Below are positions 1,053 through 23,959 of a stretch of 64,000 bases of DNA, one piece after another. Where the stretch lies: the NCBI GenBank assembly GCA_000004695.1, contig CM000150.2:4704001-4768000 (forward strand), written 5' to 3'. Each line of letters starts with the position of its first letter. Position 1 is the stretch's first letter. A program made the position numbers and the translations under genes. The notes below the pieces were generated by a model. That model searched no databases. It worked only from the letters and a program-made list of their open reading frames with translations, and was not told the origin of the DNA. The stretch comes from Dictyostelium discoideum (lineage: Eukaryota).

Positions 1053-3458
1053 TTAATTGATTTGGTTTAATTCCTCTTCCTTAAAGTTCTCTACATATGA
1101 ATAGTAGGTTAATTTAGAGAGTGCGAATGCTTTGAGGATGTTGGTTTTGGTTTTGATTGTTGAGTCAGTGGTTTTCCATAGTACTAAGGATGATCTTATT
1201 GTGTTTAATATTTCTGGCATTTTTCTTGTTATCCCTTTACCTGTGAAGAAGTATCCCAAGTATCTTTCTGGATTTGTAGATATTGGAATTCTTTGGTTGG
1301 TATTGTCTGGGTTGCCTATAAGAATTGATGAAGATTTGTCCATGTTAAGTTTTGAGGAAGTGGCTTTGCAAAATGAATTGAAGTGTTGTAGTACTAATTC
1401 AAGTTGTTGAGAGTCTGGGACCATTGAAGCCGAGTCGTCTGCAAAGCTTTGGAATTTCTCTCTGTGGTTGCTGTTGTTTAGAGGAAGGCCAGTAATTCGG
1501 TCATCTTGTAAAATTTTTCTAGCTAAAGCCTCTATTACAAGGACGAACAGGGTGGGTGATAGTGGATCTCCTTGTTTAACTCCTCTTTTGATCTCAAAGG
1601 GTATAGTAGTTCTACCATTAATTTCAATTCTTGCTTCAGATTTGGTGAGTAGATTCATTATCAGGTTGATTATATTGGTTGGAATGTTGATGTGTTGTAG
1701 TGATCTAAGTATTGAACCGTGTGAGATCGAGTCAAAAGCTTTTTCGAAATCATATAGTGTAATTATTCCGTTAATTCTTTTATCATTACAATAGTTGATT
1801 AATTCGTTCATTGATATGATATTATCTAGAATGAATCTGCCTGGTACGAAACCTTTTTGATTGTGGTTGATCACTTTCGTTAGTATTGGGATTATTCTAT
1901 TGTTTATTAGCTTTGAGTGGATTTTATATATACAGTTAGCCAGTGTAATTGGTCTTCTGTTTTTGATTAGTTCGGGGTCTCCCTTTTTAGGTATCGTGAT
2001 AATGAGGCCTTCTTTGTAATTTTTGCTAATTAGATGAGGATTTCTTAGAGTGTCGTTGAATGCTGAGGCCAGTATTGGAGCTAGTTTTTCTTTGTGTGTT
2101 ATGTAGAATAAGTTTGGAATTCCATCTGGACCTGGAGATTTGTGTGGGTTCAGTTGTTTTATTACTTCTAGGATCTCTTGTGAGGTGAATTCATTTTCAA
2201 GGTTGTCCCATGTTGAGTCCCTGGTCACTGTCCAATTTTCCAACATTTCGTAATGAGATGGTGGGTCATCTTCTTTGTAGTCATAAAGATTTGAGTAATA
2301 TTTTACGTATTCTTCTTCGATCAATTCCTGTTTGTTGATTGTTCTACCTTGTGCATCTTTTACTGCGTTGATGGTGAAATCATTGTGTCTTTTCTTGATT
2401 CTCGCGGAGATGTACTTGAGTGAGGTTTCTTCGCAATAGTTGTTCAATTCTTGTTTAAGTTGTTCTTCTCTTTTTTTAGATTCATTTATTGCTGAAAGGG
2501 TTGCGAAGGCTTGGTCTTTAAATTCTGTCTCTAGTAGGGAGATTAGATTTTTGATGTTTGCCTTATTGTTGTAGTCGTTTTGTTTTTGAAATTCGGTGTA
2601 TAGTTGTTTTATTTTGTTCAGTAAGCTGTTGAGTTGAGAGAAGGAAATAGAGTTATGGTTGGCTGACAGCTCCCTTGAATAATCGTTAAGTAGGAAGTCT
2701 ATTTTCTTAAGCATTATGCTTGAGAGGATTGAGGATTTTTTTAATCTCCATCTGCGCTTGTTCATCTGTATGTTGGGTAGAGTGAAAGTGGTTGATAGGA
2801 AGTTGTGATCTGATAGAGGTATGTCGTTAATTTTTGGGGGGATTAGGTTCCTTAGGTATAATTGGCTGTAGTTGATTAAGCTATTGTTAAGGTATATTCT
2901 GTCTAGTCTCCTTTCCAAGATTCTTGTGAGGTTATTGTTTGTGTTGTGTATCGTTCTTGAGAAGGTGGGTCTTTTATTTAGTTGGTCCATATCCATTAGG
3001 TTATTTGAAATTCTGATGGCTTCGATTACTGTGGCCATCTCATCTGGGGATTGTGTTGTCAAGTTGCCTTGGTCATCATTTGATGTGTGATTGTCATTGA
3101 AGTCTAAACAGTTGAAGTCTCCTGCTATGATGTCGATGTTTTTATTAGGGTTAGACGTTAGGTTGTGGTATTGGTTGTTGAAGTGTTTGTTTAGTGTTGA
3201 AGCTAGTGTTTTTCTTTTATCAGGTTGGGCCGGGGTGTATATGGCCAAGATTCTCGTTGTGGTATCTTTTATTAGAATGTCTGATATTATTAGTCTACCT
3301 TCTATTATGAATATTGGTGAGAGTTTTATGTTTTGGTTGTTGTGGTTTAGTATTCCTATTCCGTTGCCTCTGTTGGTTGCACTAATGATGGAGCCAGGAA
3401 ATAGCTGGTGTGCTTGTGTTGCGTCAGCATTGAGTTCATTGACTATGGTTAGTGCCAA
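1053..3458 (-). CDS. Retrotransposon ORF2 (apurinic-like endonuclease plus reverse transcriptase)
   Basis: An 801-aa ORF. It has an N-terminal APE-like region (IIAGDFN, LSDHNF) and central RT motifs (PKKGDPELIKNRRPITL, YDFEKAFDSISH, FADDSASMV). Confidence 0.85.
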   Translation of the reverse strand: MALTIVNELNADATQAHQLFPGSIISATNRGNGIGILNHNNQNIKLSPIFIIEGRLIISDILIKDTTTRILAIYTPAQPDKRKTLASTLNKHFNNQYHNLTSNPNKNIDIIAGDFNCLDFNDNHTSNDDQGNLTTQSPDEMATVIEAIRISNNLMDMDQLNKRPTFSRTIHNTNNNLTRILERRLDRIYLNNSLINYSQLYLRNLIPPKINDIPLSDHNFLSTTFTLPNIQMNKRRWRLKKSSILSSIMLKKIDFLLNDYSRELSANHNSISFSQLNSLLNKIKQLYTEFQKQNDYNNKANIKNLISLLETEFKDQAFATLSAINESKKREEQLKQELNNYCEETSLKYISARIKKRHNDFTINAVKDAQGRTINKQELIEEEYVKYYSNLYDYKEDDPPSHYEMLENWTVTRDSTWDNLENEFTSQEILEVIKQLNPHKSPGPDGIPNLFYITHKEKLAPILASAFNDTLRNPHLISKNYKEGLIITIPKKGDPELIKNRRPITLANCIYKIHSKLINNRIIPILTKVINHNQKGFVPGRFILDNIISMNELINYCNDKRINGIITLYDFEKAFDSISHGSILRSLQHINIPTNIINLIMNLLTKSEARIEINGRTTIPFEIKRGVKQGDPLSPTLFVLVIEALARKILQDDRITGLPLNNSNHREKFQSFADDSASMVPDSQQLELVLQHFNSFCKATSSKLNMDKSSSILIGNPDNTNQRIPISTNPERYLGYFFTGKGITRKMPEILNTIRSSLVLWKTTDSTIKTKTNILKAFALSKLTYYSYVENFKEEELNQIN

Positions 3459-5051: not shown

Positions 5052-5123
5052 AGGCTCCAATGAGGATCGAACTCATGACCTCTTCCTTACTAGGGAAGCG
5101 CAATACCACTATGCTATGGAGCC
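5052..5123 (-). tRNA. tRNA-Thr (anticodon AGU)
   Basis: The reverse complement is GGCTCCATAGCATAGTGGTATTGCGCTTCCCTAGTAAGGAAGAGGTCATGAGTTCGATCCTCATTGGAGCC. It has a 7-bp acceptor stem, a 5-bp anticodon stem, loop CT-AGT-AA, a TTCGATC T-loop, and A and B boxes. No intron. Confidence 0.85.
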
Positions 5124-8272: not shown

Positions 8273-9103
8273 ATGAGCTCACAAAATACACCATCAGCTA
8301 CATCACCAACTATTGAACCACAAAATACTAATAATAATAATAATGAATCACAAACCACTCAAGTAGCAGCACCAGCAAATACATGCGTACCAAATTGTAA
8401 TAGTTGTACATCACCAAGTGTTACCAATTCCATTGAGATTGAACAATTGATTGCAAATAATCATGCATGGTCAACTAGAATTAAACAAGAGGATCCAGGA
8501 TTCTTTGCTCATTTAGCTCAAGCACAAAAACCACGTTTCCTTTGGATTGGTTGCTCAGATTCTCGTGTACCAGCTGAACGTTTAACCGGTTTAGAAAGTG
8601 GTCAAATCTTTGTACATCGTAATGTTGCCAATTTAGTGATTCACACCGACTTGAATTGTTTATCAGTACTCCAATATGCCGTTGAAGTTTTACAAGTTGA
8701 ACATATCATCGTTTGTGGTCACTATGGTTGTGGTGGTGTTGCAGCATCTTATGACAATCCAGAGTTGGGTCTTATCAATAATTGGTTACTCCATATTAGA
8801 GATCTCACTTTCAAACATGCCGAATTAATCGAAATGACTAAATCAAATAGAAAACGTTTATTATCTACCCTTTGTGAATTAAATGTCGTCGAACAATGTA
8901 ACAATTTGGGTAACACAACCATTATGCAATCTGCTTGGAAAAAAGGTCAAAATGTTAAAATCCATGGTTGGATCTATGGTATCCATGATGGTTATCTCCG
9001 TGATTTAGGTGTTTCCGCTTCATCTCGTGAAACTTTAGAATTAAATTATAAAAATGCTATTCTTAAATTAAAAGATAATTGTTCATTAGGTGATAGTAAT
9101 TAA
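8273..9103 (+). CDS. Beta-class carbonic anhydrase
   Basis: Contains the CSDSRVP and HYGCGGV zinc-ligand motifs of beta-CAs. A single 276-aa exon with an N-terminal low-complexity region. Confidence 0.9.
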
Positions 9104-9591
9104 AAAATATATATATACTTGATAATAAATTTAAAAAAATATAAAAAAAAAAAGAAATAATGTAAAAAATAATTCACAAAAAAAAACAAAAAAAAAAAAG
9201 TAATAAAAAAAAGTAATAAAAAAAAAAAAAGAATTAAAAAAAAAAGAATTAAAAAAAAAAAGTTTGGAAAAACGAATTAATTATGTGTCGTGTATCGTTT
9301 TTTCATGGAATTTTTCAAATATTTTCACAAATATTTATTTTTAATTTTTATTTTTTTATTTTTTTTTGTTTTTTTTTTTTTTTTTATTTTTTTTTTAAAT
9401 TAAATTTTAAATTTTTTAATTTCATTTTTTTTTTTTAAATTAAAACACACACATACAATAAATTTTTTAGTTTTGGAATAATATAAAAAAGAAAAAAAAA
9501 AAAACAAACATATAATATAATAATAAAATAATATAGAAAACTTCCATAAAAATAATAAATTAAAACTTTGATTAATAAAAAAAAAAAAAAA

Positions 9592-10219
9592 ATGCAAGTA
9601 GATAGAGATTTAGATAAAGTTGGTGTTCATTGTGCCATAAAAGATTGTAATTTATTAGGTATGTGTTAATGAAATATTAAAAAAAAATAAAAAAATGGGA
9701 ATGAAAATATGAAAATGAAAATAAAATAGAGATATAATATAATAATATATTAATAAATCAAAAATTAATTTTTTTTTTTTTTTTTTAGATTTTTTACCAT
9801 TTATATGCCAAGGTTGTCAAGGTCAATTTTGTTTAGAACATAAAGAAGAAAAAGAACATAAATGTCCGACTCCAATTGTAAAGATTGGTGGAACCACAGT
9901 TACATGTGATAAATGTGAGAGTATATTACCAGTACCAGTAAATTGTTTTGAAAAGGATATATTATCAATGCACCTAAGAAAAGGTTGCCCTAAAAAGACA
10001 ACAGTAAATCAACATAAATGTTCATTTTGTCCAAAGATGGAATCAATTAAAATAGTTTGCCCAAATTGTAAAAATAATTTTTGTATAAAACATAGATTTG
10101 AACGTGACCATAAATGTAAACCTAGAGTTAATCCTCCCCTTCAACAAACTATTTCACCACATTTACAAAATTTATTATCTCAACTTAGAAATTCAAAACC
10201 TGTCAAAACAAATAGTTAA
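9592..10219 (+). CDS. AN1-type zinc finger protein with two zf-AN1 domains (2 exons, intron 9659..9788)
   Basis: Exon 1 (9592..9658) plus exon 2 give [35 protein letters not shown] and [33 protein letters not shown]. Both fit the AN1 C-x2-C...C-x2-C...H...H-x-C spacing. A GTATGT donor and a T-rich AG acceptor keep the frame. Confidence 0.75.
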
Positions 10220-10773
10220 ATATAAATAATAATAATAATAATAATAATGATATGATCAATCCTTATGAATTCATATAAAAACTGTACAAATAAATTCTCA
10301 TAAATAAACATATGACATGCGCCACAATTTTTTCTTTTTTAAATTATAATTTTTTTCTTTTAATTATTAATTATTTATAAATTCTTTATTTATTTATTTC
10401 TATTTTTCGTTTCCAATTATATTATTTTCATTTTATTATTATTATTTTTTAATTTTAAATCATATTTAAAATAACTTTTTTTAAACAACTATTAATAAAT
10501 AAAACTAAATATAAATTATCCAAAAAAAAAAAAAAAAAAAAGAAAATATATTAAACTTAATTAAGTAAATAAATTAAAAAGAGTATTATTAAAATTTTTT
10601 ATTAATTTTTATTTAGAAATGTAAATGTGTGTAATTTGTTTAAATGATTATTTATTAAAATAATAAAGTGGGTATAAATTTTTTTTTTTTTTTTTTTTTT
10701 TATATTTCATAAACCAAATATTTAATTTAAATTAAAATATTATTAAAGAAATAGAAAAATAATATATATAAAA

Positions 10774-11046
10774 ATGACACTTTTTAGTATTTATAATTTT
10801 TAATTTTAATTTATTATTATATTTAATATTTTATATTAATATTTTTTTATTATTATAATTTTTATAGATTCCATTTCATCTATTTCAAACTCGACTGGTA
10901 TCTCTAAAGAAAGTTTAATTGGAAATTTAAATAGTAATGGAATTGCAACTGGTAATATTAGTGTTTCATGGTTAGGTGGATTTGATGGTTGCGGTGGTTG
11001 CGGCGGTGGTTGTGGAAAAAACGATTTTTTATATTCATCTTTATAA
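10774..11046 (+). CDS. HssA/B-like (hssA/2C/7E family) small Gly/Cys-rich protein; divergent copy with an altered C-terminus
   Basis: Exon 1 is ATGACACTTTTTA (MTLF). An 81-nt AT-rich intron runs GT...TATAG. Exon 2 reads [59 protein letters not shown]. It is preceded by the same promoter block as the copies at 19.4-22.8 kb. Confidence 0.6.
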
Positions 11047-12416
11047 ACACTTGGTTTATTATTTATTTTCGTCATTTTAATCATTTTTGTTTTATTATTT
11101 ATTTTCATCATTTTATAAAAATTATAAAATTAATGGTAAAAAATCAAATGTTATCCAATTTGATTCATCATTCTTTGTTAAATTATCACCATCATCACCA
11201 TCAGTTCTACATAATGGAGGTATAATGGCCAGGTGGATGAATGGAACAAAAAGTACGGGTATACCCGAACCACTAACAGAATCAACGGCGGCACAATTAG
11301 TTTCCAACTTTTTGTTTTAGTTTACATAATAAGACCATAACATAACGCATACCAAACTCTGGTGGATTACCAAAGAAACTAACCAATGGTGTATACATTG
11401 ATTCAACTGACTGTGACTATATTTGAAGAATATCAAGCATTCATGATATTTTGAATGATTACTAGAGGATACAAGATTCACATAGTTTTTCAAGAATTGC
11501 AGTGGTTGGATCATGATTTTATGATTTCAAAATACGTTCAAAATTTAAATGAACATCCATGAAAATTCTTCTTTTTTTCTTTTGAATCTTTATCTTTATT
11601 ACTATTATTATTATTAATTATTATTATTATTTTTATTATTATTAATATTTCCAAAATAATTTTTTTTTTTAATTTATTTTTGGTTGTTTTATTTTTTAGG
11701 GAATAAAATAAAGTAGTTGGAGTAAAAAAAAAAAAATAATTCGTGATGATCATTAAATGGTTCATACAGATATAAAACGCACACTATTAGTTGAAAATGA
11801 TGGTAGATTCTTTATTGGTGATTTTGGAAGAGCAAAGAAAAAAAATAAAATTAAAAAAAATTATAGTTTAAATAAAAAATAAAACAATATTATATTGTAT
11901 AAGGAAAATTTTAAATAAAAATAATAATAAAAATAAAATAGTAATAATATATATATGTTTTTTTTCAACCTTTAGTTCAATAGACTTTATTATTAAATAT
12001 TTTTTAAATTATTTAATTTGATTAAATTTAATCATGGGTAATTTAATTTAACTCTTAAAGTTTTACTTCTCTAGTTAATTTTGAAGACCATGGACACCAG
12101 AAGCAACTATTGAATTATATATTTATTTATTTATAAAAATTATAATTATATGTTAATCAAATTGTATTTTTTAATTTTTCAAAATTATATTTAATTAAAT
12201 ACATACCCTGGGAGGAAAGCAATTATTTATTGTTTTATTATAATAATATTAATAATATTCATCATCCCAACAGTTTAAAAAACACTCAAGTAATTGATTT
12301 TTTTTTATTAATATTATTTTTTTAAACAATAGAAAAAAATAAATTTATTTCATTCTCAAATAATTATTCAATTGTAAATAACAAATTTAAATAAAATAAA
12401 AAAATAAAATATTAAA

Positions 12417-12768
12417 ATGAAATTATTATTAGTATTATTATCTCTTCTTTTAACATTTTCATTATTGGTACAATCTGAAACAGCCTATTTTGGTTTAAAA
12501 ACCCATGGATACCAAAATGAATTTATTTTCAAATTAACTGATTCAGGAAAAATTAAAAAAGCCAGAGATATTTTGTCTGGAGGTGAGTATAAAATTTATA
12601 AAACATTGATAATAACAATAATAAACATCATTTTTTATATAAATACATATGCTAACAATATTTAATATAGAGGAAACTGATGAAGTTCATGTAATGGGTA
12701 GAATTAAAAAGACAAATGAAGACTATAATCCACGTAAATATTCTTTTGATTTTTTATTTAAAATTTAA
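12417..12768 (+). CDS. Small secreted hypothetical protein (signal peptide; at least 2 exons; a third exon ending near 12918 is possible)
   Basis: Exon 1 (12417..12582) has a clear signal peptide, MKLLLVLLSLLLTFSLLVQS. A GTGAGT donor and an ATATAG acceptor lead to exon 2 from 12671. The downstream structure is uncertain. Confidence 0.35.
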
Positions 12769-13650
12769 TTATTATTTAATTATTTTATTAATTTCATTTC
12801 ATCACTTTTAGATTTTTCCTTTATTATTGACCCAGATACAGTCACATTTTTTGAGATGGCTATTGAAGTTTGTGATGCCCCAACTGATTATGTTCAAGAC
12901 CAGAGAAATCCAATGTAGCCTCATCTGAATGCATGGCGAAGATCCATTGTATCCTGAAAGACCAATTAATTCCAATGTGGCTTCATCTGTTGCAAATCGA
13001 TTTTCATTTTTTAAATCTTATAATAATCTATTAAAAATTAATAAAATTTCTTTTTTTTTAACATATTTTAATATTATATATTAATTTTTAATAAATTTTA
13101 TTATTAGTATTATTTTTTGATAATATTAAAATAATAATACTAATAATAAAATTTATTAAAAACTAATAATATTTTTTGATTATTTTTTATAATAAATAAG
13201 GAATAAAATATTTAAAAAAAATAAAAATTCATATATTTTAATATTTTTTATTTAAATATTTATTGTACACCCATTATTTTTTATCATTTTATTATAGTTT
13301 TTAATATACAATATCATATATTATATTACTATAGTTTAATGTTTTAAAAAATGAGAAATTACAATAGTAAAATTTCTCACAATATGGTAAATCAATAAAT
13401 TTTTTATAATTTAATGACAAATTAATATTCAATTTTAATTAAATAATATTAGATTTTATCAATTTTTAATTTATTAAAAAATATTTTTATTTTGGCCAGA
13501 TAATTTAATAATAAAGTGTGATTAATTATTAATTAGAAATTGATATTAGTTTGTTAAAAATTTTATTAAATCATAATATTGTTTCTTAAAATATGAGTTT
13601 TTGTGGTAGTTTAATTTCTCACAAAATAGTAAAATTTCTTAGGTTTTTTT

Positions 13651-13656
13651 CTCCGG

Positions 13657-13690
<34 letters not shown>

Positions 13691-13730
13691 ATTATTATTA
13701 ATTATAATTAATTATTATTATTATTGTAAA
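13651..13730. repeat. (ATT)n microsatellite
   Basis: Direct reading shows ttattattattattattattattattattataattattatta... Confidence 0.85.
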
Positions 13731-13811
13731 AATCAATTGATATTAAAAATTTGAAATCACTGAAAAAAAAAAAATAATAACCACATTAAAGATCGGTCGT
13801 GGTTAGATCTC

Positions 13812-13851
<40 letters not shown>

Positions 13852-14090
13852 TATTAACAGTGTGCTGGTAAAAATTAATTTATTTGAAATTTTTTTTTAT
13901 TTGTTTTAATTCTAATTAAGACAGAGGAGAGTTAATGAGGTTGAAAAAATAGAAATAAAAACAAAAATAAAAATAATTACTACATCAAAAATAAAAAAAA
14001 AAAAAAGTAGAATTAAAGAAAACTAAATTTTTATTGGAGTAATTATTTTATTTAAGAAAATAAAAAAATATTATCTCATGATTAAATATT

Positions 14091-15009
14091 TTATTTATCA
14101 GATATAACTTCTATAGAAAATAAATGGATTGAAAATCTTGAGATTGGTAATAGAATTACTGAGAAATCCTTTCCTACATCAAATTTTGGAGTTTCAAATA
14201 CAAATCTATCATACAATTGATAACTTCTATTTTGATGGAATGTTAAACGAGTAACCAAGTTTTTACTTGATCCTTGAGTATGAAAACTGTATGTTTTATT
14301 TAAATAATAAAGGTCATCAGATCCAGAGGCAAGAATTCTTCTAATTTTATTAAGTTCATATCCATTTGAGTTTGTTTTTATTACTTTTAGTTGAAAGTTA
14401 TTTGGTATATATTCATAGGTTTTATTTAAGTGATATGAATAATAAATTCTGATTTTAACTTGATTGTTTGGCTTGGATAACAAAAAGCTTTGAATGAAGG
14501 CTATATCATAATTTGGTTGATTTTCAGTGGCAACAAAAGTTATATCAACAGCATCATCTGAAACATACTTTCTATAGGGATAAGATTGAACGTAAATTCC
14601 ATAGCATCCTGTTAAAAAATCAAAAGATTGTTGAGGTCTTTCATAAGGCAACGTCCAAACTACACCTTTTTTAATATTTCTACCAACATCTGCAAAGTCA
14701 CGAATAATAATTGTTCCACTATCACCTTTCTGTGTATTATCTCCACGTTCCCAACTGATTCTTTCACCTGTTGAGGATGTCGAGGTTGGTTTATAAACTA
14801 CGTCACGGTCATATCTTGTAACATCTGAGTACAAGAATAGTGAAATAGTTCCGCTCCAATCTGGTACTGGAAATTTATCATTACAACGCCAATTTCCATT
14901 TGAATTTGTGGCACATCTATTATCATTTTGAATTAATATTTGTGGTAAAATAATCATATAATTTGAAAACACCTATTTAACATGTAATCATAATAAAGAA
15001 TTAGAAAAG

Positions 15010-15062
<53 letters not shown>

Positions 15063-15957
15063 TACTTCAAGTGAATGTAATCGAATTTTAGCACTAAATA
15101 TTATATCTTTGTTTGTTCCATTTACAATTCCTGGATGTAAACCCATTGAAATTCCATTATAATTAGCATCACGGAGTAGTGCTGAGTATAATACTGCAGT
15201 ATCAATATACAATTTGGCTAAGAGGCTAATACGAGTTGGATCTGAAAATTGTATTAAACAATCTTCCAATTTACTTAAAAAAACATAAAACACTGGTGGT
15301 AAATTGTTTTTAGTTTCTTCTGTAGTTAAACCAGTTGCACCAAATTCTTTTTTCCATATATTGAGCATATCCATATAATTATCTGAAGATTTTTTCAAAG
15401 TTTTAAATTGATATCTGCATGTTTGAAGAACACTTGCATTAATGGCTCTATTGGTATAGATTTTCATATCTTTTGCCATAAATTCCATCCTTTCGTTAAA
15501 CTCTTTCATTCTAAATTAAATTAAATTTTAAAACTATTTGTAAATATATTTACAATATATATATATATCTTTTATTTTTATAAAAAGTGTTTTACTTACG
15601 TTACTTTTGGTTCTTCTGGTTGTTTTGGATAAAACTAGATTTTTAAAATTAATATTTTAAAGCTTTTTTATCATAATTTAATAATTTAATAATACATACC
15701 AAATTGAATACAAAATATAAACAAGAATCTATGGCTGCACCATAAACTGGAATACTACAAATTCCTAAAATGAAATATAATTAGTTTTTATTTTAAAATT
15801 AAAATTTCAATTTTAATTAAAAGAAAGAAAACTTACCACCTCTAACCAAACCAATATAATCTGGTAATGTGGGATCATTTACTAAATGAGCATCATTTGA
15901 AGGTAAAAGTAATAAACATAAAAAAACAATTAGAGATAAAAAGATAACTTTTTTCAT
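14091..15957 (-). CDS. Secreted hypothetical protein of about 515 aa (5 exons)
   Basis: I assembled the exons by hand. Exon 1 (15957..15837) is MKKVIFLSLIVFLCLLLLPSNDAHLV..., a signal peptide. Exon 2 is 15764..15700, exon 3 is 15634..15600, exon 4 is 15510..15066 and exon 5 is 14972..14091. All junctions are GTAAGT/GTATGT donors with T-rich AG acceptors and preserve the reading frame. The intron at 15065..14973 contains a 58-nt A/T homopolymer. Confidence 0.65.
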
Positions 15958-16284
15958 TTTGATAAAATCGATAGTAATTAAATTTTTTTTTTTTTTTTTA
16001 AAAAAAAAATATAATGTATTTTAAAATTTAAAAAAAAAAAATATTAGTTTAAATAGTATTATCTGAAATTTTCCTTTGCTTTAAAAAATAATGATTGTTG
16101 TGAATTAATTGACCCATAATATTTTAAAGGATCAAACATTTTGTTTTTTTTTAAAAAATCTTTTGATTTTTTAAAAGTTGCCCAATAAATTTTACGATTC
16201 TCAATTTAAATTAATTAATTAAAAATTAAATTGAAAAAAAAAAAATTTATTGGGTCTAATATTTTAAAAATCAATATCTTTGGG

Positions 16285-16315
<31 letters not shown>

Positions 16316-16537
16316 AAAATATTAATTTGATTAGCCCATTCAATGATTTTTAATTCAAGATTTTTTTTTTTTTTTATAAATTAATTAAAAAATTAATTAG
16401 ATTGGCCCACAAGCTAAAAATCTCCAAACCAGATTTCTTTCCTTTTTTTTTTTTTTTTTTTCGTCATAAATTTTATTTCAAAATTACATAATAAAACTAA
16501 CCGTTTATTTAAATAAAACTTTTTTCAATAACCAATC

Positions 16538-16601
<64 letters not shown>

Positions 16602-16669
16602 CTTTTTTTAAATAAACAAACTACATTCTATTTAATTTATTATAATAATTAAATCTAAATTTAAATAAT

Positions 16670-17782
16670 ATGAAATTATTATATATTGTAGTATTTTTAT
16701 TATTTGCTATAAAACTTTGTTGTTCAGAGTATTGTGGAGAAACTTATTGCGTTGAAAATAGAAATTGTTATTCATTTATAGGTTGCAGAAATTCAACATG
16801 TTTATATGAAACAATAGATTTAGATGATGAAGTTGATTGTACAGTAGACACATGTAGTGATAGATATGGTGTTAAAAATACTCCAAATAATTCATTATGC
16901 CCACCAGAAAATTTATGTGATATGTTTCTATGTGATACTCAAAGTGGTTGTGTTGCTATACCAAAAGTAAATTGTCCAGCACCAAACCCATGTCAAATTC
17001 CATTAGGTTGTAATAGAGAAACTGGTATTTGTGAATACGATGAAATTGATTGCCATGATGATAATGAATGTACCAACGACTATTGTGACCCAATACTTGG
17101 AGAATGCGTCCACTTTTCCAATGATACCATTTGTTCAAATAAAGCAAGTAACTTCTCTACTTGTGTCCTAAGTGGAGTATGTGGAGAGTTTGGCTGTAAA
17201 TACGTAGAAGATAATTGCAATGATGGTAATCCATGCACAGATGATTATTGCGATTTTAAAAACGGATGTGTTTCACAAAAAAACGATTGGAATTGTGATT
17301 CACTAAGTGCATGTTCCGAAGGTATATGTACCGACAATGGATGTGTTCAACAAGAGGTCGATTGTGATGATGATAACCCATGTTCAGAAGATTTTTGTCA
17401 TCCCTTATTTGGATGTGGTTCAATATTAAATGATACTATTTGTACAAATGGTAATAAATGTGTAAATAGTACATGTACTGAAGATGGTTGTTCATTACCA
17501 GTTCCAATAGTTTGCCAAGATGGAAATCCATGTTCTGATGACACCTGTAATCCCTCCACTGGTTGCCAATTCACATTGAATAATTCAAATTGTAATGATG
17601 GAAAGAAATGCACTATAGATCAATGTGGTCTAAATGGTTGTACACATACAAATATTACATGCCCACCAAAAAGAGTTGTCGACATTATTCTTATAGGATT
17701 AATTTGTAGAAATCACTACTGTGATCAATCAACTGGAAATTGTGTTCCTGATATGAATTCAGTATCTCTATTATGTATATAA
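16670..17782 (+). CDS. Secreted cysteine-rich protein with multiple Dicty_CTDC (Dictyostelium slime-mold) repeats, prestalk/prespore ECM-type
   Basis: Has a signal peptide (MKLLYIVVFLLFAIKLCCS). Repeated C-x-DDNxCTxDxC-x-xxGC units appear (NECTNDYCDPILGEC, NPCTDDYCDFKNGC, NPCSEDFCHPLFGC, NPCSDDTCNPSTGC). Confidence 0.8.
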   Translation: MKLLYIVVFLLFAIKLCCSEYCGETYCVENRNCYSFIGCRNSTCLYETIDLDDEVDCTVDTCSDRYGVKNTPNNSLCPPENLCDMFLCDTQSGCVAIPKVNCPAPNPCQIPLGCNRETGICEYDEIDCHDDNECTNDYCDPILGECVHFSNDTICSNKASNFSTCVLSGVCGEFGCKYVEDNCNDGNPCTDDYCDFKNGCVSQKNDWNCDSLSACSEGICTDNGCVQQEVDCDDDNPCSEDFCHPLFGCGSILNDTICTNGNKCVNSTCTEDGCSLPVPIVCQDGNPCSDDTCNPSTGCQFTLNNSNCNDGKKCTIDQCGLNGCTHTNITCPPKRVVDIILIGLICRNHYCDQSTGNCVPDMNSVSLLCI

Positions 17783-18002
17783 ATACAACCAAAAAAAAAA
17801 ATAAAATAATAAAAAAAAATAAAAAATAAGTAAAAAACAAATTTTCATAGTAATAATAAAATTTAAATTAGAATTTTATTTTAAGTTAATTTTATTTTAT
17901 TTTTTTGTTTTATTAATTTTTCTAATCTTTTGTTATTACAAATTTCAATGATTTTGTTTGTTTTTTTTTAGTTAAAAACTAAACAATCATTTTCTTTAAT
18001 TT

Positions 18003-19430
18003 TTAATATAAAATAAAATAATTTTTCAGGTAATATAATATTTGATGGTGATATAAAAACTGATACAGATAATTTGCAAAGAAAGTATAATTATCTTTTT
18101 GTAAAAGAGTAGAAAATATGGATTTTCTGGAAATGGTTGAATTTGCACGAGTATCAAGTGAGAAATCTTGAAAATCAGAAATTCCCAATAACCTTTCTTT
18201 GTATAGGTATTTTAAAATCTCTAATCTATTATTGATAATAAGATGACAAATTTGATTTGAATTAATTTCAAGGGAATTCTTTTTCATATTATAATTATTT
18301 GAAACGGTCGAATCGAATTGTATTATTTCAGAGTTTTTAAAAGTTGGATAGTTTAAAAAGAAATTTAAAACTTGAATATTACCCAATTGAATTGATAACA
18401 TTATTAATGGTGTAACTCCATTTGATGATTGAAAATGAATGGATGGGAAAAAAATATTGTAAAAGATCTAATCCAATTGTTTTTATAAGTGAAGGTAATT
18501 ATTTCTTTATTTTTTCATCAAATGAATGATCTAAAGAATAAATTGATTTTAACCTACTGGAATCTAAAAATTCAATTAAATGTTCAAAAATATCACTTCT
18601 CTTAAAGAAACAACTGGTAATTGAATTTGAAGATTTAAAATCTAAAAGAAATTCATTATGACTTGTTAGATTCCAATCTGCACCTAATGAAATTTTTGAA
18701 CTTAAAAATTGTTTATTCTTTAAATTTGTAAATAATCTATCCACATTTAAACTTGATTCTCTAAAACTTGGATCCAATGAAAATGGTGATGATGTAAAAT
18801 ATTGAATTTTACAATTTGATTCTTTAAATGATTCAATAAGGTTACTAACTAAAAAATATCTTTTATCAACTGATAAACTATAAAAATTATATCCTTTGGT
18901 ATAATTGAATTACATTCTTTTGAAAGTTGAAATAATTTTATAATTAATTCATCTGAAAATCCTTTTTCAATTGATTTCTTTATAATTTCAATATTTATAA
19001 TATTATTTTTTGAAATTTTAAAAATTATTGTAATTTTTTCAATAATTGATAAATCAATTGAAAAAATGATTTGATTTTCACCATCACCACTAACTTGTGA
19101 TATATTTGTAAAAATTTCATTTAATATTTAATTTTCTTTTCCTTATTATCTTCTTCCTCTTCTTCTTCTTGATCATTATCATAATCATTATCAAATAATG
19201 AATTTAAAATAAAATCTTTAAATAAAAATGAAATGATTTCATCTTTTAGTTCAATTAAATCTAAATCTAATTGTTTAAATATATTAATTGAATTGGATAA
19301 TGATTTTTTTATTTAATTGTAAATAATCTTCAATTAATTTCTTTCTATATGATTTTGTTAATGATGGTTGTAATCCTTTTGATTATAATAAGATTTTGTC
19401 AACTTTACAAATATTATTAAAAATTTTAAT
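18003..19430 (-). pseudogene. Disrupted gene with an ankyrin-repeat-like segment (frameshifted, probable pseudogene)
   Basis: Coding-like minus-strand pieces sit in three different frames. At 18467..18003 one piece reads ...NGVTPLIMLSIQLGNIQVLNFFLNY, which is ankyrin-like. At 18777..18499 another ends ...DEKIKK* with no usable GT donor to join the frames. Upstream there is an acidic DNDYDNDQEEEEEED segment. Confidence 0.3.
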
Positions 19431-19440
19431 TTTATCTTGA

Positions 19441-19535
19441 TCGGTGGTGGTTGTGGTTGGAGTGGTTGTGGTGATAGTTCTAATTTAAATATTATCAATG
19501 TTGATATTGATATTGGTCGCCGTCGTCATCGTAGA
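19441..19535 (+). pseudogene. HssA/B-like gene 3' fragment (C-terminal part only)
   Basis: ...[33 protein letters not shown] is followed by the family 3' flank. No exon 1, intron or promoter lies upstream. Confidence 0.5.
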
Positions 19536-19692
19536 TGTTGCTAATATAATAATTTATATTTGGAACATCATGTTATTATTTTAAATATTAAATAAAATAT
19601 AATATTATTACTACAAATTTTAATTTTGTTTTTTTTTGTAAATATTTATATATTAAAATATTATTAAACAAATAGAAAATAAACATATAAAA

Positions 19693-20002
19693 ATGACACT
19701 TTTTAGTATTTATTTTTTTTTAAATTTTATTTATTATCATTCAATGTACTGTATTAATTTTATTTATTATAATTTTAATAGATTCATTTTCATCAATTTC
19801 AAACTCCACTGGTATCCCTAAACATAGTTTAATTGGAAATTCCGAAAGTAATACTAGAGGTGGTGGTAACAGTGTCTCATGATTAGGTGGATTTGATGGC
19901 TGTGGTGGTTGTGGTGGTTGTGGTGGATTCGGTGGTTGTGGCGGTTCAAATTTAAATTTTATCAATATTGATATTGATCGTCGTCATCGTAGATGTTGCT
20001 AA
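19693..20002 (+). pseudogene. HssA/B-like gene copy with an in-frame nonsense codon (TGG to TGA at the conserved SWLGG tryptophan)
   Basis: The promoter, exon 1 (ATGACACTTTTTA) and intron are the same as in intact copies. Exon 2 reads ...[10 protein letters not shown] (agtgtctcaTGAttaggtgga). Intact copies have agtatttcaTGGttaggt. Confidence 0.55.
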
Positions 20003-20096
20003 TTTATAATTGGAATATCATGTTTTTATTTTAACTATTAAATAAAATATAATCTTTTTTACTTCAAATTTTAATTTTGTTTTCAATTTAAAATGA

Positions 20097-20100
<4 letters not shown>

Positions 20101-20156
<56 letters not shown>
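20101..20156. repeat. Long T homopolymer (about 55 nt) in the 3' flank of the hssA-like repeat unit. Homologous tracts recur at 20882..20937 and in the copy-4 intron at 22546..22600.
   Basis: Direct reading. The tract is followed in each unit by the same gattattttgaatga(g/a)tgattca(t/g)aattgaaaac... block. Confidence 0.8.
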
Positions 20157-20574
20157 ATTATTTTGAATGAGTGATTCATAATTGAAAACTTTTATTTACA
20201 ATTGATCGTTGATAATTTTTTAATTAACCAATTAATTCATTAATCTGATTTATAAATTTGATCGATTTAATTCCAACCTTTTTCTATTTTTTTTATAAAT
20301 AAACCATAATTAATTGTAAAATTTAATAGTCTACTTTTAATTTTGAAAACGGATTTTATTAACTAAAAAAGAGTTTTTTATTGTGATAATAAAAAAATGA
20401 TATTAAAATTTTATTTTTTTACATGAAAAAAGTAAATGTGTGCCTTTTTTTTATTTTTTAAAAAAAATTTTAGTTAAATTTGTTTAAATAATTATACATT
20501 AAAGGTAAGTGGGAATAAATAAATTTTTTTTTTTTTAATTTCAAACCAAATATTTAATTTATATTAAAATAAAA

Positions 20575-20743
20575 TTAAACAAATAGAAAATAAACATGGT
20601 TAGGTGGATTTGATTGCTGTAGTGGTAGTGGCGGTGGTTGTGGTGGATTCGGGGGTTGTGGTGGTGGTTGTGGTGGTAGTGATGGTTCAAATTTAAATAT
20701 TATCAATGTTGATATTGATATTGGTCGTCGTAGATGTTGCTAA
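20575..20743 (+). pseudogene. HssA/B-like relic with an internal deletion. The promoter is fused directly to the distal half of exon 2.
   Basis: The conserved upstream block ...aaacaaatagaaaataaacat joins directly to ggttaggtggatttgat...[17 protein letters not shown]. Exon 1, the intron and the proximal exon 2 are missing. The ATG created at the junction is out of frame. Confidence 0.5.
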
Positions 20744-20874
20744 AATAAAAATAAAAACAGGATATTTCAATTATAAATTATAACTTTTAAATAAAATATA
20801 ATCTTTACTACAAATTTTAATTATGTTTTTATATTAAATTTTTATTTTCCTTGTTTTGAAATAATAAAACACCT

Positions 20875-20938
<64 letters not shown>

Positions 20939-21282
20939 ATTATTTTGAATGAATGATGATTCAGAATTGAAAACGACTATTTCCAATTGATCATTGTTTA
21001 TTTTTTAAATAATTTTTTAAATTAACAAATCAGTTTTATTAAATTTGATCGATTTAATTGCAAATTGTTTTTATTTTATTTTTTTAAAATAAAACAATAT
21101 AATAAAACAATCTACTTTTATAAAAAGAATGAATTATATTAACTAAATTAGTGAGAGTTTTTTATATTGTAAAACTATTTTATTTTATTTGCCTAAAAAA
21201 AAGTAAATGTGTGTTTTATTTTTATTATTATAAAATATATTTTAGTTACCCTTAATGTATAATTATTTAAACAAATTTAAGT

Positions 21283-21294
21283 GGGTATAAATAA
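21283..21294 (+). promoter_or_regulatory. TATA-like box (GGTATAAATAAA) in the conserved hssA/B-like promoter block
   Basis: The same aagtggGTATAAATAaa motif recurs about 85-100 bp upstream of the ATG at every copy (near 10668, 20505, 21283 and 22382). It is followed by the conserved ...aaacaaatagaaaataaacat(a)taaaaATG leader. Confidence 0.4.
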
Positions 21295-21377
21295 ATTTTT
21301 TTTTTTTTTTTTTTTTTTTTAATCAAATAATAAATTTAAATTAAAATATAATTAAACAAATAGAAAATAAACATAAA

Positions 21378-21695
21378 ATGACACTTTTTAGTATTTATTT
21401 TTTTTATTTAATTATTAATATTAAATGTTTTGTATTAATTTTTATTTTTATTATAATTATAATAGATTCAATTTCATCAATTTCAAACTCAACTGGTATC
21501 TCTAAACATAGTTTAATTGGAAATGTCGAAAGTAATACTAGTAGAAGTGGTGGTAACAGTATTTCATGGTTAGGTAGATTTGATGGCTGTGGTGGTTGTG
21601 GTGGTGGTTGTGGTGGATTCGGTGGTTGTGACAGTTCAAATTTAAATATTATAAATATTGATATTGATATTGGTCGTCGTCGTAGATGCTGTTAA
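21378..21695 (+). CDS. HssA/B-like (hssA/2C/7E family) protein, intact copy (2 exons, intron 21391..21465)
   Basis: MTLF|[77 protein letters not shown] 75-nt GT...AG intron. A TATA-like GGTATAAATAAA box lies about 85 bp upstream of the ATG. Confidence 0.7.
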
Positions 21696-22394
21696 TATTG
21701 AGCATCAATGATATTAATTAAAATTTTAAAAAAAATAATAACTTAATGAAAATAAAATATAATAAATAAAAAAAAAAACAATTAAAATTTATAATTGGTA
21801 CGACATCATTTTATTATTCCAATTTTTAAATATAATATATTATCTTTATTTCTTTAAATTTTTGTTTTTTTTTATTTTGATACTTTCTAAATTATTATTA
21901 CTTCTTAATTATTACTTTCTAAATTATCATGTTTCTTTTAACATTTTAAAACTATTTATGCCAAATCTAATAACTTCCAAAAATAAATAAAAAAAAATTA
22001 AAATTAAATCAAAGGGAAAAACACAATTAAGGAAAAAACTTTAAAAATATCTAAATATTTAAATAAATGTTAGAGTTAATAGTAAATAAATAATTATTGA
22101 AGTACAAAAATGTTTGTAAATAATTTTATATAATAAAAAAAAAAAATAAGTAAATTTGTGTCTTTTTTTTATTTAATTAATATTTTAGTTACCTTTGATG
22201 TATGACAACTTTTGAAAATGAATTATATAAACTAAATTAGTGAGAGTTTTTTTATACTATAAAAATACAACATGTTAGTAAAATTATTTTATTTTATTTA
22301 CTTTAAAAGTAAATGTGTGTCTTTTTTTTTAACTAAAAAAAAAAAAAATTATTACCTTTGATGTATAATTATTTAAACAAATTTAAGTGGATAT

Positions 22395-22425
<31 letters not shown>

Positions 22426-22482
22426 AACCAAATATTTAATTTATATTAAAATATTAAACAAATAGAAAATAAACATATAAAA

Positions 22483-22537
22483 ATGACACTTTTTAGTATT
22501 TATTTTTAATTTATATTTGTTGGTATACAATGTATTG

Positions 22538-22605
<68 letters not shown>

Positions 22606-22846
22606 AGATTCAATTTCATCAATTTCAAACTCCACTGGTATCTCTAAACATAGTTTAATTGGAAATTTTGAAAGTAATAATAGTAGAAGTGGTGGTAACA
22701 GTATTTCATGGTTAGGTGGATTTGATGGCTGTGGTGGTTGTGGTGGTTGTGGTGGTTGTGGTGGTTGTGGTTGTGGTAGTTCAAATTTAAATATTATCAA
22801 TGTTGATATTGATATTGGTCGTCGTCGTCGTCGTAGATGTTGTTAA
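22483..22846 (+). CDS. HssA/B-like (hssA/2C/7E family) protein, intact copy. The intron (22496..22607) is expanded by a T homopolymer of about 55 nt.
   Basis: Same exon 1, exon 2 and promoter as the copy at 21378. The C-terminus reads ...[39 protein letters not shown]. Confidence 0.7.
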
Positions 22847-23959
22847 TGTTATAGAACATCAATGATATTATTTAAATTTTAAATAAAATAATAACTTTTA
22901 TAACACTTAATATTTTTTTTTTTTTTTTTTTTTTTATTATTTTATATAAAATAATGGTATACGAAAGTTTAAAAAAAAAAATTATTATTTTTCTAGTTCT
23001 AAAATTTAAATGAATTCATTGCTTATTTTATATTATTTTTTTATTTTATTTTTATTTTTTAAAATATGATTTTCTTTTTATTTATGTGGTATCACACTGG
23101 CCATTTTTAAAATTATTTTTTTTTTTTCATTTTATTTCCAAATCACCACACTGGCACAACCAAAATTTTTTATTGTGGTGAAAAAAAAAATATTAAAAAA
23201 ATTAAGAAAAAAAAAAAAAATCTTTTTTATTTTTTTATTTTTTTTTTTTTTTTATTTTTTTATTTTTATTTTTTTTTCTGAAGAAATAAAGAAGAAAGAA
23301 AGAGACAGTAAAAGGTAATGACAATTCTCTTTTTTTATTATTGTTATTTATTTCAATTTTATCTTTGTTTTTAATTTTTATTCAGTTTTTTTTTTTTAAT
23401 TTTATTTTTAAATTTAATTTTTAAATTTTCATTTATTTATTTTTTTATTTATTTATTTTTTTATTTTTTTCAATTTTGGTGTGTTTGTGTTTTTTTAAAG
23501 ATATTATTTTGAAACGAAAGCAGTGATTGCACTTTTTTTTTTTTTTTTTTTTTTTTTTTCTATTTTATTTTTTAAGCCGTTGATAACTTTTTTTTTTTTT
23601 TTTCTATTTTATTTTTTATTTTATAACTTTTTTTTTTTCTTTTTAATTTTTCTAAATTTTTTTTTAATTTTTATTTTTATTATTTTTATTTTCATTATTT
23701 TTATTTTTATTATTTTTATTTTTAAAACTTGTAATAACCTCACAATAAAAAACAAAAAATATTTATTTTTATAAATTTTATTTTTGCAGCTCATAAACAG
23801 ATATTTATTGTAAAATTAGAAAAAAAAAAAAAACATCCAAATTTTAAAAAAAAAAAAAAAAAAAATTTGGTGAGAAAAAAAAAAAAAAAAACAGTTCATA
23901 CCGTTCATCTTAAGCTTATTGTAATATTAGTACTATAATAATAATAATAATATAACAAA

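Follow-up and report, generated by a model that had tools for sequence, protein, structure and literature searches.

Genes of the hssA/2C/7E family of Dictyostelium discoideum follow a compact plan, in which a 13-nt first-exon open reading frame (ORF) is joined across one short intron to a second exon (PMC2257962; PMC6198379). The census of Vicente et al. (2008) comprised 96 family members, among them sigN146 (chromosome 1, 63 amino acids (aa)), sigN148 (83 aa, intron 111) and sigN158, the last as an older 92-aa model of the gene called U4 below (PMC2257962 Additional file 1). The sigN relatives are induced at ~10 h of development (PMC2257962), and hssA was named as a high-copy suppressor (PMC6198379), as an earlier annotation of this DNA from its letters alone (the sequence-only reading) had stated. 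Here we analyzed a 64-kb window of chromosome 1 of D. discoideum AX4 (positions 4,704,001-4,768,000 of 4,923,596 bp; G+C 24%), in which these three sigN genes lie together with several disabled relatives; positions given below are those of the window. Very probably, this is a UPF0512/sigN-type array under birth-and-death turnover, in which AX4 has kept two copies that look intact and has lost the others to a stop codon, to deletions and to an insertion of 8.4 kb. The cluster is an ordinary and already catalogued one (sigN146, sigN148 and sigN158 in PMC2257962, unit U3 labelled a pseudogene in dictyBase), and what is new is modest: a split gene, additional lesions, a promoter stub and turnover between strains.

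Repeats were detected by self-BLAST with default scoring and by nhmmer. With the U4 gene as query, nhmmer returned exactly six homologous segments in the window (10775-11018, 19442-19542, 19694-20001, 20594-20742, 21379-21694 and 22598-22833; E 5e-11 to 2e-79), the last five being units U1 to U5, each where the sequence-only reading had placed it, and the first a further copy at 10774. The leader motif AAACAAATAGAAAATAAACAT occurs four times and a C-terminal coding motif five times, where shuffled sequence would yield 0-0.2 occurrences. The family gene plan of 13-nt exon-1 ORF, short intron and exon 2 is present in the 10774 copy, U2, U4 and U5, which all start with ATGACACTTTTTA|GTATTT and have introns of 81, 76, 75 and 112 nt, respectively, ending in AG (TAATAG in U2, U4 and U5); U1 and U3 lack the exon-1/intron part. 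The spliced U4 product matches UniProt Q55BT2 / XP_646749.2 exactly ('hssA/2C/7E family protein', UPF0512 protein N), the product of the 10774 copy is an exact match to Q55BU0 ('UPF0512 protein X'), and UPF0512 V, O, P, C and D were hit with E values from 1.7e-29 to 2.2e-9. The U5 and U4 products (83 and 80 aa) are shorter than 120 aa and rich in Ser, Gly and Cys, as is typical of the family. At the dictyBase level the proposed hssA/2C/7E assignment was correct, given the identity of the U4 product to a protein of that name; the label HssA/B-like was not retained, UniProt filing these proteins under UPF0512 instead.

An excerpt of the gene table of Kin et al. 2018, whose coordinates place the window at the chromosome 1 positions given above, lists the dictyBase identifiers DDB_G0270364 (10774 copy), DDB_G0270374_ps (U3), DDB_G0270798 (U4) and DDB_G0270376 (U5), and within that excerpt neither an entry at the coordinates of U1 or U2 nor an expression value for U2 was found (PMC6198379 supplement 2). 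A search by identifier did not find the gene IDs of the locus in the main texts of the literature. We considered whether U5 might be an unannotated gene and rejected this, given the existing records sigN148, DDB_G0270376 and EAL72538. The 83-aa U5 product (EAL72538/DDB_G0270376) is absent from a 15-billion-protein collection and from the homology search, although the products of its neighbors are present.

In AX4, the first unit of the array is divided between the 10774 copy and U1. Its promoter and 5' leader (10612-10773, + strand) carry GTAAATGTGTG at 10621, then GGGTATAAAT, a T run and AAATAGAAAA, align with the promoters of U3, U4 and U5, and are collinear with the unit-1 promoter of two other D. 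discoideum strains, L007 and L008 (86-87% identity). The 5' half, known as DDB_G0270364, sigN146 or UPF0512 protein X, occupies 10774-11015 (+), with exon 1 at 10774-10786, an intron at 10787-10867 and exon 2 running to the breakpoint; the annotated ORF continues into foreign sequence up to a stop at 11044-11046, giving a 63-aa product without the family C-terminus. The 3' half is U1 (19443-19544, +), in which the ancestral frame is still open and the 3' untranslated region (UTR) extends to ~19640. Unit 1 of L007 and L008 matches it at 92-93% identity over the coding part and the 3' UTR, better than any AX4 paralogue does. In both strains, sequence collinear with window 9000-11018 up to the Gly/Cys repeat leads straight into a unit whose 3' part matches U1, and unit 1 is an intact ORF in L007, L008 and L014 and full-length by nhmmer in L013, a D. 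cf. discoideum genome. The AX4 junctions are sharp on the left (11015/11016, ...GGTGGTTGTGG | AAAAAACG) and on the right (19442/19443, ...TATCTTGATC | GGTGGTGGTTGTGG), and between them lies foreign sequence separating two complementary, non-overlapping halves of the same orientation that are contiguous in relatives. Because the halves are contiguous in L007 and L008, the junctions are sharp and the intervening DNA is homologous to a block ~50 kb away, the 10774 copy and U1 together make up one gene, as its 5' and 3' halves respectively, and record a single disabling event. U1 is indeed a 3' fragment only, as first described, but it is not a separate relic, as the comparison with L007 and L008 makes it the end of the gene begun at 10774. 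A simple inversion was rejected as the cause of the split, as both halves have the same orientation and the upstream genes are collinear.

The inserted DNA (11016-19442, 8,427 bp) is absent between the gene halves in L007 and L008. In both strains a homologue of window 11916-19445 lies on the same contig at a distance of ~50 kb, mostly inverted and with 75-88% identity; this block carries a Dicty_CTDC gene, a BP74_N gene and a gene of 422 aa, and counterparts of the insert block were located at L010 6319-13137 and L011 5430-12730. The homology breaks off within a 1084-aa gene at precisely the U1 junction, and a full copy of that gene with the same neighbors stands ~50 kb away in L007 and L008. 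From left to right, the insert contains decayed kinase-like ORF pieces (~11100-11900), cmbC_ps2 (12417-12918; name from the excerpt of PMC6198379 supplement 2), two genes labelled 'unknown' including one for a Dicty_CTDC protein (16670-17782), and a 5'-truncated copy of the 1084-aa gene (~17800-19442, -), which includes DDB_G0270370 and DDB_G0270372_ps. That cmbC_ps2 and DDB_G0270372_ps are labelled pseudogenes by dictyBase, according to the same excerpt, fits a degenerate extra copy. In the proposed sequence of events, an 8.4-kb copy of a neighboring block of genes would have cut unit 1 in two in AX4, with the 63-aa protein X as the surviving 5' half.

The opposite polarity, in which the AX4 split is ancestral and the contiguous unit 1 elsewhere arose by deletion of the intervening block, deserves consideration, as L013 also carries a BP74_N/cmbC-like segment inside the array, just after unit 1, so that AX4 is not alone in having sequence of this kind near the array. 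A deletion would, however, need to have rejoined the halves exactly into the open, family-typical gene seen in L007, L008 and L014 (and full-length by nhmmer in L013). It would also leave unaccounted for an insert that ends in a truncated 1084-aa gene, when the full copy with the same neighbors lies ~50 kb away in L007 and L008, and dictyBase labels the insert genes as pseudogene copies in the excerpted table (PMC6198379 supplement 2). We consider an ancestral split very unlikely, and insertion into a previously contiguous unit 1 is the reading carried forward.

A transposon was likewise rejected as the inserted DNA. No terminal repeats were found in the 8.4-kb insert, only homopolymer 'repeats', and no tRNA was found near it, the sole tRNA of the window lying at 5052-5123; transposon ORFs are absent, and the content consists of host genes and pseudogenes. 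Dictyostelium TRE/DGLT elements typically target tRNA genes. The tRNA at 5052-5123 is a tRNA-Thr(AGT) gene on the - strand, and TRE3-A ORF2 fragments at ~1053-3038 (chromosome 1 4705053-4707038) lie ~2 kb from it, at the usual tRNA-linked position of a TRE (excerpt of PMC6198379 supplement 2). The BP74_N/cmbC segment of the insert (12325-12902) is inverted once more with respect to the remainder. The ORFs at 11100-11900 are fragmented and frameshifted, and the one at 11757-11882 (+) reads HTDIKRTLLVENDGRFFIGDFG, resembling the catalytic-loop/DFG region of protein kinases; judging by this resemblance, the insert probably has a decayed kinase pseudogene at its left end. DDB_G0270794 of dictyBase (11122-11514) lies on the strand opposite to the kinase-like pieces.

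U2 (19641-20002, +) retains ~55 bp of proximal promoter and leader, exon 1 (19693-19705), the intron (19706-19781) and exon 2 (19782-20002). Its spliced frame is interrupted at codon 38 by TGA (19880-19882), at the Trp of SWLGG, where TGG is found in every other unit that retains the codon, namely the other AX4 copies and 11 units of two other strains. Compared with the interval between units 1 and 2 of another strain, AX4 lacks ~485 bp that cover the spacer, both G/T-rich boxes and the TATA box, and U2 is therefore promoter-less besides carrying its stop. A further 6-bp loss removes the Ile-Gly codons, and the substitutions I7F, S17P and NLNI-to-NLNF fall at positions constant in nearly all other units. 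The ratio of non-synonymous to synonymous differences per site (pN/pS; here and below a rough Nei-Gojobori count over non-repetitive codons, with all counts small) is ~1 for U2 against its orthologue candidates (0.96-1.38; ~20 changes). The TGA at the conserved Trp thus stands as first noted, but the description of the unit as complete does not, since the distal promoter, the TATA box and the Ile-Gly codons are gone. U2 would have lost its spacer and core promoter, undergone the TGG-to-TGA change and accumulated further damage.

In U3 (20432-20743, +; dictyBase DDB_G0270374_ps at 20596-20743), a promoter (20432-20597) is fused to the final 147 nt of exon 2: the proximal promoter, which reaches 20597 with ...AAACAT, is followed immediately by GGTTAGG. 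The fusion was correctly recognized in the sequence-only reading, but its size was not: the deletion amounts to 193-233 bp, depending on the unit used for comparison, rather than ~180 bp, and a 3-nt CAT microhomology is present at both ends. The ATG at the junction (20596) is out of frame and meets a stop after five codons, the old downstream frame remains open, and no in-frame start codon, exon 1 or intron is left. The U3 promoter additionally contains a 29-bp inversion (20477-20505) and an altered TATA box (GTATAAATA to GAATAAATA). A second small inversion of ~33 bp (20748-20780, +) just 3' of the stop codon is unique among the 16 units compared; by self-BLAST with default scoring, 20000-20032 is 94% identical to its reverse complement. 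A single microhomology-flanked deletion would thus have removed exon 1, the intron and the beginning of exon 2 from U3, which carries the two small inversions as well. Both U2 and U3 combine homology to a coding paralogue with a lesion that blocks the full product, and since the U2 intron is retained they are unprocessed, duplicated copies. The idea of one mode of pseudogenization per unit captures the TGA of U2 and the deletion of U3, but each of the two units carries several lesions.

As the region is repetitive, contains only 24% G+C and long homopolymers, and is hard to assemble, these lesions might be errors of the reference assembly, with a miscalled base producing the TGA and collapsed or mis-joined repeats producing U1, U3 and the promoter stub described below. 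This was examined in GCA_054883475.1, an independent whole-genome shotgun assembly that was reached via a flanking 370-aa protein and is 99.2-99.5% identical to the window. Over 19000-23400 it is identical to the reference except for the lengths of four T runs, and every substitution, deletion, inversion and junction, including the TGA and the U3 deletion, is reproduced. The T runs at 20102-20155, 20876-20937, 21296-21320 and 22544-22600 (54, 62, 25 and 57 nt) are shorter by 29, 26, 3 and 22 nt in GCA_054883475.1. These differences, the one point on which the two assemblies disagree over this interval, reflect either real length instability or homopolymer compression in one assembly. Since the insert junctions are also sharp and the insert matches real sequence elsewhere in other strains, assembly error is an extremely improbable source of the lesions, which we treat as genuine features of the AX4 array.

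The locus is best described by a proposal in which the units would form a lineage-specific, head-to-tail tandem array of UPF0512/sigN-type hssA/2C/7E members with a canonical unit of ~0.95 kb, each unit comprising a spacer with a long T run, a promoter of two G/T-rich boxes and a TATA box, a conserved leader, the 13-nt exon-1 ORF, an intron of 75-120 nt and exon 2. An upstream block had been ascribed to all five units, which was overstated: the full block (GTAAATGTGTG ... TTTTAGTTA ... AAGTGGGTATAAATA ... T run ... leader), from GTAAATGTGTG through the TATA box, is present only at U3, U4, U5 and the 10774 copy, the proximal ~55 bp before the ATG are all that is left of it at U2, and nothing is left at U1. 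Likewise, the 3' flank described as common (poly-T/GATTATTTTGAATG.../GATCGATTTAATT) does follow U2 and U3 but not the other units, the flanks of U4 and U5 being different. The canonical spacer after U2 (20003-20431, +) comprises the 3' UTR, a T54 run (20102-20155), GATTATTTTGAATGAGTGATTCATAATTGAAAAC (20156-20189) and GATCGATTTAATT (20260-20272), and is ~78% identical to the U3-U4 spacer (20744-21202, +), which is also canonical, with a T62 run at 20876-20937 and GATCGATTTAATT at 21047-21059. A structured-RNA search of the conserved spacer gave no Rfam match at E <= 0.1.

Between U4 and U5 the arrangement is different. A non-canonical spacer (21696-22149, +), common to L007 and L008 and with a second 3'-UTR-like stretch at 21786-21873, is followed by a solo distal-promoter fragment (22150-22211, +; GTAAATTTGTG...TTTTAGTTACCTTTGATGTAT) that has no gene behind it, then by a canonical spacer tail (22212-22299) and the complete U5 promoter. 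Strain L008 has a complete extra unit exactly at the position of this ~60-bp stub, which is a further relic, missed in the sequence-only reading; one more unit would thereby have been reduced to ~60 bp of promoter.

The two remaining AX4 units are intact, as previously proposed, having kept promoter, splice sites and ORF. U4 (DDB_G0270798, sigN158, UPF0512 protein N; 21203-21695, +) has its promoter at 21203-21377, exon 1 at 21378-21390, the intron at 21391-21465 and exon 2 at 21466-21695; the corresponding parts of U5 (DDB_G0270376, sigN148; 22300-22846, +) lie at 22300-22482, 22483-22495, 22496-22607 (an intron containing T57) and 22608-22846. Both introns (75 and 112 nt) splice GT..AG into open frames of 80 and 83 codons, respectively. 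U4 is orthologous to the penultimate unit of L007 and L008 through a shared atypical 3' flank, and the U5 3' UTR is 97-98% identical to that of their last unit. With its orthologues, U4 gives a pN/pS of 0.19-0.34; several intact orthologue pairs give 0, and intact units overall range from 0 to 0.35. In the U5 promoter, an A24 run (22395-22418) directly follows the TATA-like element, at a position where U3, U4 and the 10774 copy have a T run.

To compare the array among genomes, the orthologous interval was located via single-copy flanking genes, the downstream TPR gene DDB_G0270378 leading to seven other assemblies; family proteins were rejected as probes for the orthologous array, as they led to unrelated loci. 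The stretch bounded by the zf-AN1 and TPR genes is free of units in D. firmibasis and D. citrinum, contains two and five in two D. cf. discoideum genomes, and in the D. discoideum strains L007 and L008 contains five and six, mostly intact, with a period of ~940 bp. Other disabled units occur among these six genomes: unit 3 of L007 is frameshifted, unit 2 of L008 lacks the distal promoter and the stop codon, the last unit of L008 lacks the distal promoter, and one of the five units of L013 (2775-8863) is inverted (8110-7792), so that frameshift, stop loss, promoter loss and inversion are all represented. The end units are orthologous across strains, and the internal ones cannot be cleanly paired and are turning over. 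Given the differences in unit number (0, 0, 2, 5, 5 and 6), the orthologous ends and the internal turnover, the pattern is therefore as birth-and-death evolution predicts, and that part of the earlier interpretation was borne out by the cross-strain comparison. The array would have arisen inside the D. discoideum species complex and changed by unequal exchange between units, as we infer, and by local deletion, inversion and insertion, which are directly visible.

Several observations weigh against this interpretation. The orthology of the internal units U2 and U3 across strains is uncertain. Pfam PF05710 'Coiled' matches the array products only below its gathering threshold of 21.4 bits (U4 19.9, U5 14.8, 10774 copy 14.7, repaired U2 13.0), and the paralogue UPF0512 P clears it at 28.3 bits. 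The 11-nt GGTGGTTGTGG flanking the insert on both sides could be a target duplication or merely a coding repeat, and the insert may be a duplication or the moved original, the AX4 sequence 50 kb upstream lying outside the window. In the excerpted expression table (PMC6198379 supplement 2), U4 (sigN158) has 0 transcripts per million (TPM) and U5 (sigN148) at most 0.55 in cup, stalk, spore and vegetative cells, the four cell types to which all TPM values here refer; sigN146 shows 0 except for one value of 0.27, and the U3 pseudogene 0 except for one replicate at 0.29. Relatives peak in the mound and the slug, stages outside this data set, and reads that map to several places may have been dropped from it. 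As the induction stage of the relatives (~10 h) falls outside it, these values neither prove nor disprove U4 and U5 activity. Against its orthologues, U5 shows six non-synonymous and 0-2 synonymous changes, which are also compatible with relaxed constraint. The U5 changes make it resemble U4, which suggests gene conversion from U4 to U5.

These data bear on whether the whole AX4 array is a graveyard, U4 and U5 being non-functional though not yet visibly damaged. TPM values of ~0 for sigN146, sigN148, sigN158 and DDB_G0270374_ps, the A24 that replaces the usual T run in the U5 promoter together with a changed TATA context, the excess of non-synonymous change in U5 and the missing distal promoter of its L008 orthologue would all agree with such a state. 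Against it, the orthologues of U4 and U5 are open in every strain examined, with length changes of the Gly/Cys repeat all in frame, the pN/pS of U4 and its orthologues is low, and the stages of family induction (10-16 h; PMC2257962) lie outside the expression data set. A wholly dead array is therefore a doubtful though not negligible prospect, and we retain the reading in which U4 and U5 would be live genes.

By analogy with those relatives that have been studied, the intact copies would be transcribed in post-aggregative, prestalk-type development and would yield ~80-aa proteins rich in Ser, Gly and Cys with a polybasic-Cys-Cys tail. The array promoters contain two G/T-rich boxes, and GBF sites have been proposed for sigN promoters (PMC2257962); this likeness is only suggestive of GBF-type regulation. 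The polybasic run and Cys-Cys at the protein C-terminus may possibly act as a lipidation or membrane-association signal, a suggestion made with low confidence. The products had also been called secreted, a term we do not keep, since direct inspection of the N-terminus shows no hydrophobic signal-peptide core.

An interrupted frame need not mean lost function in the hssA family, as hssA works even when frame-shifted, pointing to an effect of the transcript (PMC6198379), and U3 keeps most of a promoter and a 3' end; the relics might in that case still act as RNA. However, U2 lacks a core promoter, the promoter of U3 is damaged by a mutation of the TATA box and by an inverted segment, and DDB_G0270374_ps is at TPM 0 apart from the single replicate at 0.29 in the excerpted table. 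The unique changes of U2, whose pN/pS is ~1, include non-coding lesions, and no Rfam match was found in the spacer search. RNA-level action of the relics accordingly appears quite improbable to us, and loss of function remains the preferred account of U2 and U3. Equally far-fetched, on present evidence, is that transcripts of U3 or of truncated protein X could modulate prestalk or culmination behavior and that their presence or absence could shape strain-specific social development; this is raised because hssA acts when frame-shifted (PMC6198379) and because the array is young, is confined to the D. discoideum complex and differs in copy number from strain to strain.

The practical importance of these results is small, amounting to annotation hygiene and a tidy teaching example. 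The reviewed UniProt entry 'UPF0512 protein X' (DDB_G0270364) represents the 5' half of a gene that has been interrupted, and pseudogene is its most fitting status; for the relics U1, U2 and the promoter stub, no annotation was found. Automatic annotation of newer assemblies merges units into false genes, as in a 114-aa model from the U2 start to the U3 stop (L001 13024-14045) and a false 240-aa model across three units in L008 (6876-8903), the real intact units being left uncalled in such annotation. For structural change within the D. discoideum complex, the interval from the zf-AN1 gene to DDB_G0270378 is a hot spot, with 0-6 units, inversions and the 8.4-kb insertion, and could serve as a strain marker or for studying the expansion of a family of ~100 members.

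Compared with described systems, the array stands close to the sigN Group 1 and Group 2 clusters of chromosome 2, with which it shares family, gene plan, small Ser/Gly/Cys-rich products, clustered copies and similar promoters, the chromosome-2 copies being thought to be local duplications (PMC2257962). Those clusters contain inverted gene pairs, and all 13 members are coding (87-89 aa; PMC2257962), whereas the chromosome-1 array is strictly head-to-tail and most of its AX4 units are disabled; with SigN1, its proteins (80-83 aa) share only 22-31% identity, and they end in a different C-terminal tail. SrfA/GBF dependence and prestalk expression belong to the chromosome-2 sigN genes and were shown there only (PMC2257962). 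With hssA and the cup-cell hssA/7E/2C clade, the array shares membership of a superfamily of ~100 genes with a 13-bp first exon and a ~200-bp second exon, but the cup clade ranks with the gene sets most strongly expressed in cup cells (PMC6198379), in contrast to the TPM of ~0 of the array genes in cup, stalk, spore and vegetative cells.

Among the UPF0512 A-X proteins, U4 is protein N and the 10774 copy is protein X, and the array products have an N-terminus beginning MT(L/I) and a C-terminus in common with UPF0512 V, O, P, C and D from other chromosomes. Protein X differs from the other UPF0512 proteins in lacking the conserved C-terminal third, being an incomplete family member because its gene is interrupted, and U1, U2, U3 and the promoter stub are non-coding relics. 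Birth-and-death evolution is a general concept for tandem multigene families (Nei and Rooney). The array resembles this concept in that copy number differs among close relatives, the ends are orthologous with turnover between them, and live genes are mixed with pseudogenes; it shows nothing unusual in this respect, and the signs of gene conversion between U4 and U5 suggest some concerted evolution as well.

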